From: an uncultured Chlamydiae bacterium
GTDB taxonomy: Bacteria > Chlamydiota > Chlamydiia > Chlamydiales > Parachlamydiaceae
DNA length: 64,000 nt
NCBI GenBank assembly: GCA_963754655.1
Contig: CAVWGN010000001.1
Span: 1,184,001-1,248,000 of the forward strand
Reading direction: 5' to 3'
Positions 27,906 to 44,922 of the stretch are shown piece after piece. Within the stretch, counting starts at the first letter, position 1, and each line of letters begins with the position of its first letter. Below the pieces are notes generated by a model that did not search any database, was not told the DNA's origin, and saw only the letters and a list, made by a program, of their open reading frames with translations. The translations under genes and the position numbers were made by a program.

Positions 27906-30383
27906 ATGAATATAGGAATTTCAAATCATTATCCTGAACAAGTCAGTGTACCGTTTATTAATGATGCAGAAGTAAATTCTGTGAAAAAGTCCAAGAAAAA
28001 ATGGACAGACGTTGAAAGTGCGCAATTGAGTAATTATATAGAAGAATTTGGAAAGAACTGGAAGAGAATTGCAGAGAACATGCCCGGTACAACTCCTAAA
28101 CAGTGCAAGTATCATTGGATACGTGTATTGAACCCTACGATTAAACATGGAAAATGGACACAAGAGGAAGATGAGCAATTGCAAAACTTTGTGGATCCCA
28201 CTATCAAACACGAAAAATGGACAGAAGACGAAGATGAGCAATTAAAAAACCTTGTAGATCAATATGGAGAAAAGTGGATAGAGATAGCTAAAGAGATGTC
28301 GGGTAGAACGAATATACAGTGTCGTGAACACTATAAGAACACTTTAAATCCCACTATCAAACACGGAAAATGGACAGAAGAAGAAGATGAGCAATTAAAA
28401 AACCTTGTGAATCAACATGGAGAAAAGTGGGCAGAGATAGCCAAAAAGATGCTGGGTAGAACGGATGTTCACTGTCGTAACCGCTATAAGCGGACTTTAA
28501 ACCCCGCTATCAAACGGGGAAAATGGACAGAAAAAGAAGATGAGCAATTGCAAAACCTTGTGGATCAATATGGAGAAAAGTGGGCAAAGATAGCTAAAGA
28601 GATGCCGGGTAGAACGGATATGCAATGCTATCACCACTATAAGACTTTTAATCCCACTATCAAACACGAAAAATGGACAGAAGAAGAAGATGAGCAATTG
28701 AAAAACCTTGTGGATCAACATGGAGAAAATTGGGTAAAAATAGCTAAAGAGATGCCGGGTAGAACGAATATTCAGTGTGGTCAACGCTATAAGAAAAGTT
28801 TAAACCCCGCTATTAAACAAGGAAAATGGACAGAAGGGGAAAATGAGCAATTGAAAAACCTTGTGGATCAATATGGAGAAAAATGGGCAGAGATAGCCAA
28901 AGAGATACCTGGTAGAACAGATATTCAGTGTAGGCAACACTATAAGAAGACTTTAAACCCTATTATCAAACAAGAAAAGTGGACAAAAGAAGAAGATGAG
29001 CAATTGAAAAACCTTGTGGATCAATATGGAGAAAATTGGACAAAAATAGCCAAAGAGATGTCGGGTAGAACAGATCATCAGTGCCGTCAACACTATAAGA
29101 CTTTAAACTCCGCTCTCAAACGAGGAAAATGGACAGAAGAGGAAGATGAGCAATTGAAAAACCTTGTGGATCAATATGGAGAAAATTGGACAAAAATAGC
29201 CAAAGAGATGTCGGGTAGAACAGATCATCAGTGCCGTCAACACTATAAGACTTTAAACTCCGCTCTCAAACGAGGAAAATGGACAGAAGAGGAAGATGAG
29301 CAATTGAAAAACCTTGTGGATCAATATGGAGAAAATTGGACAAAAATAGCCAAAGGGGTGTCGGGTAGAACAGACGATCAGTGCCGTTATCACTATAAGA
29401 CTTTAAACCTCGCTATCAAACACGAAAAATGGACAGAAGAAGAAGATAAGCAATTGAAAAACCTTGTGGATCAATATGGAGAAAAATGGGCAGAGATAGC
29501 CAAAGAGATGTCGGGTAGAACGGATCTTCAGTGTAAACAACGCTATAAGCAGACTTTAAATCCCACTATCAAACACGAAAAATGGACAGAAAAAGAAGAT
29601 GAGCAATTGAAAAACCTTGTGGATCAACATGGAGAAAATTGGGTAAAAATAGCTAAAGAGATGCCGGGTAGAACGAATATGCAATGCAATCACCACTATA
29701 AGAGGACTTTAAATCCCGTTATCAAAAAGGGAAAATGGACAAAAGAAGAAGATGCGCAATTGAAAAACCTTGTGGATCAACATGGAGAAAATTGGACAAA
29801 AATAGCCAAAGAGATGTCGGGTAGAACAGACGATCAATGCCGTTATCAATATAAGACTTTAAACTCCGCTCTCAAACAGGGAAAATGGACAGAAGAAGAA
29901 GATAATCAATTAAAAGAAGCCATTCAACGCATCGGAGAAGGTCAATGGGCCCTCATTGCACAGGAATTTTTTGATAAAACATCTGAGCAATGTGCCTATC
30001 ATTGGGAAATATTGAAGCCAAAATCTAATAAGAAACATTCGAGAAGCGAAACACATTTTCCTATTGAAGAAAGACCCTTAAAAAAATTTAAAAAAAATCA
30101 TTCCCCTCAATTGTTAGATCTTGATGAAAATAAAATTTCTTTAGATAAGCAATCTACTCGAGTAGATCAGTCTCAGTTTGTTTTATTAAATCAAGCAATT
30201 CCTCAACATTTAGAAGAGCCGATAGATGCGATTGTTGTGAGTTCTACTGTTCAGCAATCATTGAACTATGAAGAGGAGCCCTTTATTGCTGAACACGATT
30301 TATCTCCTACAGAGCAGGAGTGGACTTCTATACATGTAGAACAGCAGATGATTTCTAATGAAATTAATGATTTTATCCTTTAA
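27906..30383 (+). CDS. poly-MYB repeat protein 1 (N-cap, one truncated repeat, 11 internal repeats, C-cap, NLS-like motif, acidic tail)
   Basis: Repeats KWTEEEDEQLKNLVDQ.GE.W..IAKEM.GRT..QC...Y match the MYB/SANT W-W-W/Y pattern. Confidence 0.9.
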   Translation: MNIGISNHYPEQVSVPFINDAEVNSVKKSKKKWTDVESAQLSNYIEEFGKNWKRIAENMPGTTPKQCKYHWIRVLNPTIKHGKWTQEEDEQLQNFVDPTIKHEKWTEDEDEQLKNLVDQYGEKWIEIAKEMSGRTNIQCREHYKNTLNPTIKHGKWTEEEDEQLKNLVNQHGEKWAEIAKKMLGRTDVHCRNRYKRTLNPAIKRGKWTEKEDEQLQNLVDQYGEKWAKIAKEMPGRTDMQCYHHYKTFNPTIKHEKWTEEEDEQLKNLVDQHGENWVKIAKEMPGRTNIQCGQRYKKSLNPAIKQGKWTEGENEQLKNLVDQYGEKWAEIAKEIPGRTDIQCRQHYKKTLNPIIKQEKWTKEEDEQLKNLVDQYGENWTKIAKEMSGRTDHQCRQHYKTLNSALKRGKWTEEEDEQLKNLVDQYGENWTKIAKEMSGRTDHQCRQHYKTLNSALKRGKWTEEEDEQLKNLVDQYGENWTKIAKGVSGRTDDQCRYHYKTLNLAIKHEKWTEEEDKQLKNLVDQYGEKWAEIAKEMSGRTDLQCKQRYKQTLNPTIKHEKWTEKEDEQLKNLVDQHGENWVKIAKEMPGRTNMQCNHHYKRTLNPVIKKGKWTKEEDAQLKNLVDQHGENWTKIAKEMSGRTDDQCRYQYKTLNSALKQGKWTEEEDNQLKEAIQRIGEGQWALIAQEFFDKTSEQCAYHWEILKPKSNKKHSRSETHFPIEERPLKKFKKNHSPQLLDLDENKISLDKQSTRVDQSQFVLLNQAIPQHLEEPIDAIVVSSTVQQSLNYEEEPFIAEHDLSPTEQEWTSIHVEQQMISNEINDFIL

Positions 30384-30610
30384 AAAATTCAATGAATTTT
30401 CTATCAAGATTCTGAGACTGCTTGATTATCAATATCATTCAATAAATTTTGTTTAATTAAAAGTCTTTAAGGCATGTTTGGTAGCTTAAAGGCTTCTAGA
30501 AGATAGCTTAAAGAATCAATCCGAGTTAGGGTGTATGATTTAGCAAAAGCTTGGGAAAATCTTTCATACTATTTTTGTTACCTCCCTAAAAAAATGCAAA
30601 ATCAAGTAAC

Positions 30611-43095: not shown

Positions 43096-44922
43096 ATGAA
43101 TATAGAAATTTCAAATCATTATACTGAACAAGTTAGCGTACCGTCTATTCATGGAGCGGAAATAAATTCGGTGAAAAAGTCCAACAAAAAATGGACAGAC
43201 GCTGAAGATATTCAATTGAGCAATTATATAAAAGAATATGGAGAGAACTGGAAGAAAATTGCAGAGAATATGCCCGGTACAACTTCTCAACAATGCAGGA
43301 AGCATTGGATAAGTGCATTGAACCCTAAGATTAAGCATGGAAAATGGACAGAAGAGGAAAATGAGCAATTGCAAAACCTTATAGATCAACATGGAGAAGA
43401 TTGGGCAAAAATAGCCAAAGAGATGCCCAGTCGAACGGATAATCAATGTCGTCAACACTATAATAGGAGTTTAAACCCCGCTATCAAACAGGGAAAATGG
43501 ACAGAAGAAGAAGATGAACAATTGAAAAACCTTGTGGATCAATATGGAGAAAAGTGGACAAAAATAGCCACAGAGATGCGGGGTAGAACGAATAATCAGT
43601 GTAATCAACACTATAATAGTATTTTAAATCCCGCTATCAAACAGGGAAAATGGACAGAAGAAGAAGATGAGCAATTGAAAAACCTTGTGACTCAACATGG
43701 AGAAAAGTGGACAGAGATAGCCAAAAAGATGCTGGGTAGAACGGATCTTCAATGTAGTCAACACTATAGGACTTTAAACTTCGCTATCAAACAGGGAAAA
43801 TGGACAGAAGAAGAAAATGAGCAATTGAAAAACCTTGTGGATCAACATGGAGAAAATTGGGTAGAGATAGCCAAAGACATGCCAGGTAGAACAAATATTC
43901 AGTGTAGTCACTACTATAGGAATTTAAATCCCACTATCAAACAGGGAAAATGGACAGAAGAGGAAGATGAGCAATTGAAAAACCTTGTGGATCAACATGG
44001 AGAAAAGTGGATAAAAATAGCCAAAGAGATGCCGGGTAGAACAAATATTCAGTGTCGTGAACACTATAAGAGGACTTTAAACTTCGCTATCAAACAGGGA
44101 AAATGGACAGAAGAAGAAAATGAGCAATTGAAAAACCTTGTGGATCAACATGGAGAAAATTGGGTAAAGATAGCCAAAGAGATGCCGGGTAGAACGAATA
44201 TGCAATGTAATCGCCACTATAAGCACACTTTAAACCCAACTATCAAACGGGGCAAATGGATAGAAGAAGAAGATGAGCAATTGAAAAACCTTGTGGATCA
44301 ACATGGAGAAAAGTGGGTAGAGATAGCCAAAGAGATGTTGGGTAGAACGGGTATTCAGTGTAGGCAACGCTATAAGCACACTTTAAATCCAGCTATCAAA
44401 CTGGGAAAATGGACAGAAGAGGAAAATAATCAATTAAAAGAAGCTGTTCAACGTATCGGAGAAGATCAATGGGCCCTCATTGCACAGGAGTTTTCTGATA
44501 AAACATCTGAGCAATGTGCCTATCATTGGAAACTATTGAATTCAAAATCTAATAAAAAACAATTTAGAAACGAAACACATTCTTCTGTTGAAGAAAGACC
44601 TTTAAAAAAATTTAAAAAAAATCACACTTCTCAATCATTAAATCTTCCTGAAAATGGAAGTTCTTTAAATAGGCATTTGACACCATTAGATCAGCCTGAG
44701 CTTATTTTATTAAATCAAGTGATTTCTCAACAGTTAGAAGAGCCGTTAGATGCTATTGTTTTAACTTCTACTGGTCAGCAATCATTGGCCTATCAGAATA
44801 ATGAGCCTTTTATTGCTGAACATGATTTATCTCCTACAAACCAGGAGTTGACTTCTCAACATGTAAAACAGTATGTGATTTCTAATAAAATTAATGATTT
44901 TATTATTCAAAAAATTCAATGA
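43096..44922 (+). CDS. poly-MYB repeat protein 7 (7 internal repeats)
   Basis: Same architecture; intact. Confidence 0.9.
   Translation: MNIEISNHYTEQVSVPSIHGAEINSVKKSNKKWTDAEDIQLSNYIKEYGENWKKIAENMPGTTSQQCRKHWISALNPKIKHGKWTEEENEQLQNLIDQHGEDWAKIAKEMPSRTDNQCRQHYNRSLNPAIKQGKWTEEEDEQLKNLVDQYGEKWTKIATEMRGRTNNQCNQHYNSILNPAIKQGKWTEEEDEQLKNLVTQHGEKWTEIAKKMLGRTDLQCSQHYRTLNFAIKQGKWTEEENEQLKNLVDQHGENWVEIAKDMPGRTNIQCSHYYRNLNPTIKQGKWTEEEDEQLKNLVDQHGEKWIKIAKEMPGRTNIQCREHYKRTLNFAIKQGKWTEEENEQLKNLVDQHGENWVKIAKEMPGRTNMQCNRHYKHTLNPTIKRGKWIEEEDEQLKNLVDQHGEKWVEIAKEMLGRTGIQCRQRYKHTLNPAIKLGKWTEEENNQLKEAVQRIGEDQWALIAQEFSDKTSEQCAYHWKLLNSKSNKKQFRNETHSSVEERPLKKFKKNHTSQSLNLPENGSSLNRHLTPLDQPELILLNQVISQQLEEPLDAIVLTSTGQQSLAYQNNEPFIAEHDLSPTNQELTSQHVKQYVISNKINDFIIQKIQ

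Follow-up and report, generated by a model that had tools for sequence, protein, structure and literature searches.

Introduction

Transcription activator-like (TAL) effectors of Xanthomonas are built from two-helix repeats of 33 to 35 amino acids that follow a two-residue code, and they carry a basic import-like motif and an acidic C terminus. Chlamydial effectors are generally secreted by a type III system. Here we describe an array of seven paralogous genes, M1 to M7, at positions 27906 to 44922 of a 64,000-nucleotide stretch from an uncultured chlamydial bacterium of the family Parachlamydiaceae (assembly GCA_963754655.1, contig CAVWGN010000001.1, positions 1,184,001 to 1,248,000). We refer to the whole stretch as the window and use its numbering for the array and its neighbors. 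All seven genes of this 17-kb array read in the same direction on the plus strand, and every one of the open reading frames (ORFs) encodes a protein made largely of Myb repeats. Judged from the sequences, there is about an even chance that these proteins are effectors directed to the nucleus of a eukaryotic host.

Repeat proteins that are secreted and enter the host nucleus have been described in Anaplasma (AnkA) and Ehrlichia (tandem repeat proteins, or TRPs) (PMC7819608, PMC8112483). A nucleomodulin review mentions Myb only in a reference on the plant factor MYB30 as a target. A further study notes in passing that both Legionella and Chlamydiota possess Myb-like transcription factors (PMC10579323). 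The literature listings and passages searched on Myb together with Chlamydiae, Legionella, or nucleomodulins contained no description of poly-Myb chlamydial proteins. The original prediction for this locus, made by a model from the DNA letters alone, was aware of no described system like the array. No match to the architecture and the scale was found elsewhere, but the statement has to be narrowed, as the study just cited puts Myb-like factors of Chlamydiota in print and eukaryote-like proteins with 9 to 12 Myb repeats exist.

Results

Seven poly-Myb genes with one plan

The array lies between yidC and a pkn1-type kinase gene, both identified by Pfam profiles, and its seven plus-strand ORFs agree with the co-oriented paralogs predicted there. 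The Myb profile PF00249 matched 58 stretches (13, 8, 8, 9, 6, 3 plus 2, and 9 in M1 to M7, with M6 in two pieces). Whole-protein E values ranged from 6.8e-212 (M1) to 3.8e-21 (3' piece of M6), and scores reached 289.8 to 686 bits in the six genes that are continuous; the two M6 pieces scored 145.7 and 75.4 bits, and the curated cutoff is 24.4 bits. With repeat boundaries set at the conserved KW..E..QL that starts each repeat, the internal repeats numbered 11, 6, 6, 7, 4, 3, and 7, or 44 in all with a period of 50 to 52 amino acids, which reproduced the predicted counts exactly.

A common plan runs through all seven genes: a 31-amino-acid leader, a distinct first repeat, the internal repeats, a distinct last repeat, a basic motif, and an acidic tail, so that the shared leader, caps, motif, and tail proposed earlier were each recovered in every gene. 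The leader follows the consensus MNI[GE]ISN[HP]Y.EQV.[VI]P in 7 of 7 genes and lacks a hydrophobic signal peptide. The motif after the last repeat reads NKKHSRSE...EERPLKKFKK, with ERPLKKFKK present throughout, and the net charge of the C-terminal tail lies between -4 and -15. In two respects the original prediction went too far. The internal repeats that it called near-identical have a mean DNA identity of 84% (range, 69 to 98%), and of its seven paralogs one, M6, is split by an IS607-type insertion sequence (IS). The features of the array and its flanks are as follows.

24717..27233, minus strand: yidC, left flank core gene (PF02096, E = 1.1e-55)
27656..27905, plus strand: M1 upstream region, AT-rich, with a purine-rich AGAGAG/GAGAGG resembling a Shine-Dalgarno (SD) site a few bases 5' of the ATG
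27906..30383, plus strand: M1, 825 amino acids; first repeat, 21-amino-acid partial repeat, 11 internal repeats, last repeat; 13 PF00249 stretches
30611..31214, no strand: palindromic element resembling a miniature inverted-repeat transposable element (MITE) between M1 and M2; 281-nucleotide perfectly complementary arms, 42-nucleotide spacer
31669..33312, plus strand: M2, 547 amino acids; 6 internal repeats; in-frame deletion in the last repeat
33677..35251, plus strand: M3, 524 amino acids; 6 internal repeats; a +1 frameshift within a G run (near 35230-35240) shortens the tail
35753..37507, plus strand: M4, 584 amino acids; 7 internal repeats; tail shortened by a -1 frameshift near 37497
37861..39276, plus strand: M5, 471 amino acids from the conserved ATG; 4 internal repeats, full tail; the ORF also opens at 37849
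39640..40215, plus strand: 5' piece of M6; leader, first repeat, 2 internal repeats; enters the IS after ...NPAIKKG, at about 40194
40188..42021 (ends approximate), plus strand: IS607-type insertion in M6 (PF00239, PF01385, PF07282)
42020..42685 (ORF 42047-42685), plus strand: 3' piece of M6; restarts at KWTEEEDEQL in the third internal repeat; last repeat, basic motif, tail
43096..44922, plus strand: M7, 608 amino acids; 7 internal repeats, full tail
45052..45311, no strand: second, smaller palindromic element 3' of M7, with mirror-image 43-amino-acid ORFs on opposite strands
45749..47782, plus strand: Pkn1-type kinase with FGE-sulfatase domain, right flank core gene (PF00069, E = 7.3e-31; PF03781, E = 2.1e-69)

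For M5, the conserved ATG at 37861 is most likely the true start.

Placement in a chlamydial chromosome

The array is bacterial DNA. It sits in a 3.12-Mb contig of a 3.16-Mb genome, and its neighbors in the window include lgt, ahcY, dnaA, yidC, a low-molecular-weight phosphatase, a Pom-family outer membrane protein (a Protochlamydia family), and gyrase. G+C content at third codon positions (GC3) is 0.30 to 0.34 in the Myb genes and 0.30 to 0.355 in five core genes. Each of the seven genes follows an AT-rich region about 250 bp long; these regions are homologous to one another (mean column identity, 73%). The array harbors a MITE. Contigs of 149 to 192 nucleotides from a soil-metagenome DNA run (word share, 0.08) are identical to unique parts of the array at a depth of 2 to 4; the same run contains the IS and the MITE at higher depth and is possibly not independent of the source, and stretches that it does not cover carry no information. 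No RNA run containing the array was found. It is because of the contig, the conserved neighbors, the core-like GC3, the SD-like upstream regions, the MITE, and the metagenome contigs that we assign the array to the bacterium. The upstream regions were also scanned for a sigma-70 consensus, which was uninformative (37 sites versus 59.7 expected from shuffles), and Rfam gave no match within 27000-46000.

That the array is an assembly artifact or DNA of the eukaryotic host is hardly conceivable. The domain is eukaryotic and its nearest relatives outside this genome are eukaryotic or of unassigned origin, as such an explanation would have it, but the array is embedded between conserved chlamydial genes, its GC3 matches that of core genes, paralogs occur at five other sites in the genome, and a bacterial IS and MITE lie within it. 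It is free of introns, whereas the two eukaryotic metagenome contigs that were inspected (L051 and the GC-rich L054) split their Myb match across frames as introns would. The chimeric eukaryotic contig that the original prediction had named as its possible undoing is thus answered by the contig, the GC3, the flanks, the mobile elements, and the lack of introns, to which the metagenome contigs identical to unique array parts add a perhaps dependent witness.

In four of four related genomes, yidC adjoins the pkn1-type kinase gene. The two genes stand 18.5 kb apart here; the distance is 2.8 kb in G002, 2.7 kb in G209, and about 1.4 kb in G003. The array thus occupies a variable spot at a conserved synteny break. 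The ORFs in the gap were read in two relatives and are unrelated to the array in both G002 (411 and 173 amino acids; C3:1678500-1681450) and G209 (358 and 307 amino acids). Kinase orthologs are 74 to 78% identical in the same-genus genomes G001 to G003 and occur in G209 as two pieces of 64% and 84% identity. The yidC-pkn1 site behaves as a plasticity spot.

Myb fold and repeat relationships

The identification of the repeats as Myb held up by four routes, namely PF00249, the match to solved structures, the AlphaFold2 fold, and Foldseek. The best solved relative was c-Myb R1R2R3 (1h88_C, E = 3.1e-38), followed by SNAPC4. An AlphaFold2 model of M5, built with a 24-row alignment, contained six three-helix repeats with a predicted local distance difference test score (pLDDT) above 90, at a mean pLDDT of 75 and a predicted template modeling score (pTM) of 0.46; because the pTM is low, the overall path of the repeat array is not predicted. 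Residues 1-26 and 335-434 are predicted to be disordered (pLDDT below 50), and a helix at residues 435-465, modeled with moderate confidence, is predicted to hold a conserved INDF motif at the end of the tail. In Foldseek, a two-repeat unit superposed on DNA-bound c-Myb R2R3 (1h89_C) at 1.5 A with a template modeling (TM) score of 0.89, and on v-Myb (1h8a_C) and DNA-bound tvMyb2 (3osf_A) at 1.7 A each. Other matches were to promoter-bound SNAPC4 (7xur_A, E = 2e-12) and to CDC5/CEF1.

The aromatic core consists of tryptophans at columns 2 and 21 and a tyrosine at column 40, each in 44 of 44 internal repeats; outside the internal repeats, column 40 is a tryptophan in the first repeat of six of the seven genes (glycine in M6) and in the six intact last repeats. 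The repeats therefore show what characterizes Myb/SANT domains: a profile score above the cutoff, a predicted three-helix bundle, and regularly spaced aromatic residues.

A tree of 163 single repeats left 97 of 155 inner branches open and the donor lineage unplaced. In it, the first repeats formed one clade (SH-aLRT, 99), and the last repeats were placed elsewhere than the first and internal ones. The deep branches, on which an assignment of the repeats to R1, R2, and R3 of 3R-MYB proteins would depend, had support below 80. Long Myb arrays were found elsewhere when our own repeat hidden Markov model (HMM) was used, with 12 repeats in the metagenomic protein P0009, 10 in the fungal P0013 (Calcarisporiella), and 9 each in P0011 and P0012, likewise metagenomic.

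Variation on the recognition helix and its possible meanings

Eight columns are invariant across the 44 internal repeats (W2, Q9, L10, W21, I24, R31, C36, and Y40), and entropy is highest at columns 34 (3.23 bits, 11 residue types), 42 (2.50), 37 (2.46), and 38 (1.94). Because the HMMER alignment sets C36 on Cys130, columns 34, 37, 38, and 42 equal c-Myb Lys128, Arg131, Glu132, and Asn136. Helix 3 of the M5 model covers columns 32-43 (residues 115-126), which puts the high-entropy columns on one helical face. According to a study of tvMyb2 (PMC3203581), c-Myb recognizes bases through Lys128, Glu132, Lys182, and Asn183, along with Asn136, Asn179, Asn186, and Ser187; the substitution K128A abolishes DNA binding, and tvMyb2 also makes contact via Arg87, one residue before the equivalent of Glu132. 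At the four variable columns, the 44 repeats display 40 distinct residue combinations.

A second, independently evolved programmable DNA reader based on Myb, a functional analogue of TAL effectors in which the seven proteins would be secreted, nucleus-targeted activators of different host loci, is one way to interpret these combinations, and we consider it unlikely. In such a reader, each repeat would read a few base pairs through columns 34, 37, 38, and 42, and the 5 to 13 repeats would set the length of the target.

Several observations weigh against the reading of the proteins as host-nucleus-directed effectors, and those on Lys128, Asn136, net charge, and R1 count against specific DNA reading in particular. 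The column equivalent to Lys128 holds isoleucine, methionine, leucine, or valine in 24 of 44 repeats and lysine or arginine in 7, and the equivalent of Asn136 is missing in 10 of 44. Whole internal repeats are net neutral (mean, +0.23), and R2 of c-Myb is clearly basic. The third tryptophan is replaced by tyrosine in all 44 internal repeats. R1 of c-Myb is the nearest neighbor of the first and internal repeats in patristic distance, at a branch support of 65, and this repeat of c-Myb is dispensable for specific binding. The nonsynonymous-to-synonymous rates at columns 34, 37, 38, and 42 were 1.78, 1.62, 1.04, and 1.69 (P = 0.12 to 0.64), and linker columns 46, 51, and 52 were about equally variable and fast. 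Among 41 metagenomic eukaryote-like poly-Myb repeats, the hot columns (34, 42, 41, 38, and 43) were largely the same. Finally, four of the seven array genes carry lesions, which are taken up below.

The site-wise rates are parsimony counts on a FastTree phylogeny of the 44 repeats, in which recombination among repeats violates the assumption of a tree; without correction for the 51 tests, no column but 22 (P = 0.002) and 43 (P = 0.014) stood out. Since no contact column was individually significant, relaxation fits as well as diversifying selection, and since the hot columns of metagenomic poly-Myb proteins largely coincide with those found here, the pattern of variation is not special to the array. 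As in other poly-Myb proteins, the recognition face is the part that is either at liberty or under pressure to vary, and no code is shown by it.

Much of this would also suit proteins that are directed to the host but do not read DNA sequence, binding histones or other host proteins or acting as decoys for Myb partners, with repeat number tuning avidity. We regard this as possible though rather improbable. Net-neutral repeats with a strongly acidic helix 1 (-3.3 per internal repeat), a mostly hydrophobic K128 equivalent, the weakly supported R1-like repeat type, and structural matches that extend to CDC5/CEF1 and to SNAPC4 repeats that do not contact DNA all fit such proteins. What they explain less well is that helix 3 plus the linker is basic (+3.6 per repeat), that adjacent repeats of the model match the geometry of DNA-bound R2R3 to within the 1.5 A already noted, and that variation is concentrated on the recognition-helix face.

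Lesions, mobile elements, and selection

The IS in M6 encodes a serine recombinase (40248-40814; PF00239, E = 8.8e-17) followed by TnpB (40738-42013; PF01385, E = 3.1e-26; PF07282, E = 2.2e-22). This gene order and its multicopy state, with 11 full copies in the genome of at least 98.5% identity, place it in the IS607 type. It entered the third internal repeat of M6. In the copy there, an additional T within a T run near 41002 breaks the TnpB frame; it is lacking in 10 of 10 other aligned copies, as well as in a metagenome contig that carries the same IS in another context. A single base separates this copy from its 10 sisters, so the insertion is recent.

The other lesions in the array are the last-repeat deletion of M2 and the frameshifted tails of M3 and M4. 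These frameshifts are of 1 nucleotide each, and the DNA beyond them is still well conserved. Two further genes in the window are also split: gyrA consists of two overlapping ORFs (53956-55029 and 55010-56461), and ispH/lytB is represented by a 135-amino-acid fragment (48436-48843) covering positions 2-106 of the 267-position LytB profile, with a second ORF of 126 amino acids nearby (48997-49377). The splits in gyrA and ispH/lytB are either real pseudogenes or assembly indel errors, and because they lie in the same window, the M3 and M4 frameshifts may be assembly indel errors too.

The arm of the MITE gave 299 BLAST matches across both contigs of the genome, of which 172 were at least 150 nucleotides long and 15 near full length. 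The element yields mirror-image ORFs of 65 amino acids on both strands. A soil-metagenome contig of depth 2 links position 43904 back to 42176, as if the repeats of M7 and M6 had recombined; it could be a repeat-number variant or a chimeric contig.

Pairwise ratios of nonsynonymous to synonymous substitution (dN/dS) were 0.41 for columns 1-30 (the region of helices 1 and 2) and 0.49 for columns 31-45, and 0.46 to 0.63 for the leader, caps, and tail (leader, 0.49). With dN/dS at 0.4 to 0.6, the genes are under purifying selection. These values bear on whether the array is a decaying or neutral amplification of an acquired eukaryotic gene, produced by unequal recombination and now without function, which we think quite improbable. 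Such decay is what the lesions in four of seven genes, a truncated family fragment at 2447083-2447522, and a fairly high dN/dS would lead one to expect. Yet the dN/dS is well below 1, scaffold columns such as W2, W21, C36, and Y40 are kept in 44 of 44 repeats, the G+C content is 36 to 38% and frames of 471 to 825 codons nevertheless remain open, the frameshifts may be assembly errors, and the IS insertion is recent.

A family confined to one genome

PF00249 was found at E of 1e-6 or below in 9 of 40 relatives, all of them among the 24 same-family genomes and none among the 16 from other families of the order. Positive relatives have 1 to 7 matches versus 81 above the cutoff here (82 places in the whole genome). 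The counts in the same-genus genomes are 1, 1, and 0; the family itself was not found in any of these three genomes, the single matches in two of them being weak and unrelated. At E of 1e-8 or below, 4 of 300 other genomes sampled across the phylum were positive, a lower bound, as up to 22 candidates were scored per genome. Well-known control genomes were negative at the survey cutoffs (0 of 14), with 1 of 14 (Bacillus subtilis) positive at E of 0.001 or below. Whole Myb proteins read from relatives consist of 1 to 4 highly divergent repeats and have neither leader nor tail in common with the array.

In an index of 5.8 billion proteins, all matches of more than 50% identity to M7 came from this genome, in single-member clusters, and the next were 33 to 37% identical. 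The tail had four matches in 1.84 billion representatives, all from this genome, and no usable match in the ESM Atlas; tblastn of this genome with the leader returned family members only. By these searches, the leader and the tail are orphan sequences. Scans with the family alignment gave 82 pattern matches in species-representative genomes and 591 in JGI metagenome contigs, none of which was confirmed in either set. Against metagenome contigs, M7 matched 26 loci, all at 45% identity or less except for a short 59% segment in L054 (E = 1e-6), and a word-index search with a three-repeat paralog gave only matches of 31 to 39%. The homolog survey suggested with the original prediction, run with PF00249 across relatives and the phylum sample and with family sequences across metagenomes, thus disclosed no comparable array, and it supports a lineage-specific expansion. 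That the family is specific to this one genome is the best explanation of the search results.

Some Myb proteins of the same chlamydial family are worth recording in their own right. G020 has one PF00249 match inside an open frame of 1,425 amino acids, and G209 has small divergent Myb proteins of 1 to 4 repeats, three of them clustered at C3:75-82 kb. Basic motifs reading KKRKIS, SKRQKIS, or PKRPKTS occur in several Myb proteins of these genomes (G209, G020). Their sequences suggest that this chlamydial family has a wider range of candidate nuclear effectors of Myb type.

The distribution also bears on whether the proteins might never leave the bacterium, serving unsecreted as DNA-binding regulators or nucleoid proteins, perhaps on the abundant repeats of the genome. 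Conserved bacterial-type upstream regions at each gene, a leader with no demonstrated secretion signal, and a repeat-rich genome with 299 MITE-arm matches as a possible target would suit this role, which we judge quite improbable all the same. A bacterium has no obvious use for the basic import-like motif and the acidic tail, the domain is in essence a eukaryotic one, as the counts in relatives, phylum genomes, and controls show, and no member of the family turned up in the three same-genus genomes.

Outside the array, seven further family members or fragments occupy five other sites in the genome.

C1:1632932-1634197: 5-repeat gene with the same leader and tail
1355-1360 kb: three clustered 3-repeat genes whose leader, MNVGSL..., is more divergent
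2447083-2447522: truncated family fragment
2466266-2467753: 6-repeat gene
2583433-2584401: 3-repeat gene

These paralogs have leader, basic motif, and tail in common, and two full-length 3-repeat members of the cluster at 1355-1360 kb retain the basic motif and the tail end. In an alignment of six members, 39 to 55% identical to the first row, K..R.E, KK.K, and a few tail positions are invariant amid poorly conserved surroundings. Repeat numbers within the genome form the series 3, 5, 6, 8, 9, and 13. The nearest DNA neighbor of an internal repeat lies within the same gene in 18 of 44 cases, which points to intragenic tandem duplication plus either exchange or shared ancestry between genes. 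Because three-repeat members exist in the genome, the simplest history suggested by the sequences is a three-repeat ancestor (first, middle, and last) in which the middle repeat was amplified.

Neighboring genes

A gene adjoining dnaA (20929-22497) encodes a 522-amino-acid protein with a RhoGEF domain (PF00621, E = 1.6e-8), a further eukaryotic-like candidate effector. The 496-amino-acid ORF beside it (22985-24475) lacks a Pfam match, and its GC3 is unusually low (0.23).

Discussion

Parts of the original proposal of a host-transcription effector are firm: the Myb identity of the repeats, the gene layout, the bacterial residence, and the lineage expansion. An IS-broken gene, net-neutral repeats, and the tests at contact columns count against it. 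Taken together, these leave host-nucleus-directed effectors at the even chance that we gave them at the outset.

The following course of events and mode of action most likely account for the locus. At the core of the family is a eukaryote-type three-repeat Myb domain joined to the orphan leader and the orphan C-terminal region; its middle repeat was amplified to 3 to 11 copies, and duplication of the gene itself gave the seven-gene tandem array. A type III secretion signal would lie in the disordered leader, and the genome does encode a homolog of the SctV/FHIPEP export gate (E = 5.2e-227). Once inside the host cell, nuclear import could be driven by the conserved basic motif, KK(x15)KKFKK, of which KKFK fits what we take to be the import consensus, K-K/R-x-K/R. 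The Myb array would then bind host DNA or chromatin through the basic face of its recognition helices, while the acidic and mostly disordered tail, with the INDF helix at its end, would bring in host factors of transcription or chromatin. With their different repeat numbers and base-contact residues, the paralogs would address different host sites.

Should they enter the host nucleus, the proteins would be the first bacterial nucleomodulins based on Myb, and the locus would be a rare example of a eukaryotic transcription-factor domain remodeled in a bacterium, by repeat amplification and gene duplication, into a multigene effector family. With its series from 3 to 13 repeats, this one genome reveals the way in which a modular repeat protein is assembled. 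Were repeat composition to map to DNA sequence, the proteins would be a new scaffold from which to design DNA binding and would give direct access to the way in which chlamydial symbionts reprogram amoebal or other protist hosts. If they do not bind DNA, the locus still marks a plastic effector site, rich in IS and MITE copies, at a conserved synteny break.

Among described systems, TAL effectors resemble the array in layout only, with an N-terminal region, a variable number of repeats, a few hypervariable positions, and multiple paralogs. There is no homology: the array repeats are three-helix Myb domains of about 51 amino acids, the Pfam output contains no TALE family, and about four variable positions in 40 combinations among 44 repeats differ from a small two-residue code. 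Because both repeat type and homology set them apart, the array proteins are not TAL effectors, and membership in that family was ruled out by their 50- to 52-amino-acid Myb domains and the missing TALE match. The TALE-like architecture of the original prediction survives as an analogy of layout and fails as a statement of homology or repeat type. AnkA and the TRPs share with the array the nucleomodulin concept, but they rely on ankyrin or serine-rich tandem repeats and on other secretion systems, and neither is based on Myb.

The relatives by fold are eukaryotic. c-Myb and other 3R-MYB proteins share the fold, the 50- to 52-amino-acid period, and the R2R3 superposition, and the smallest members of the family described here have exactly three repeats. 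They differ in that the array genes are bacterial, have 3 to 11 copies of the middle repeat, have exchanged the third tryptophan for tyrosine in their internal repeats, and encode net-neutral repeats; their leader and tail bear no relation to any Myb protein. SNAPC4 and the plant MYB4R1 proteins, with 4 to 4.5 repeats, are among the best named matches (7xur_A; P0040, P0096, and P0109) and have the QC motif of helix 3 in common with the array, but SNAPC4 has a fixed 4.5 repeats and works in a multisubunit complex, whereas the array proteins stand alone with 5 to 13. The eukaryote-like poly-Myb proteins P0009, P0011, P0012, and P0013 come closest in form, as long QC-type arrays 30 to 37% identical to M7 with largely the same variable helix-3 columns and basic KKPRL-type motifs of their own. 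They have longer, irregular linkers and no leader or tail in common with the array, and none is shown to be bacterial.

Closest in setting are the Myb-like proteins of other Chlamydiota, which occur in 9 of 24 same-family genomes, some with KKRK- or KRQK-type motifs, at match counts per genome far below those seen here. Effector candidates with eukaryotic-like domains are a known kind among intracellular bacteria, and on the strength of its sequence the array is a candidate of that kind. What distinguishes it is the 81 above-cutoff repeats in one genome, the series of 3 to 13 repeats, the orphan leader and tail, and the arrangement of seven genes in tandem.

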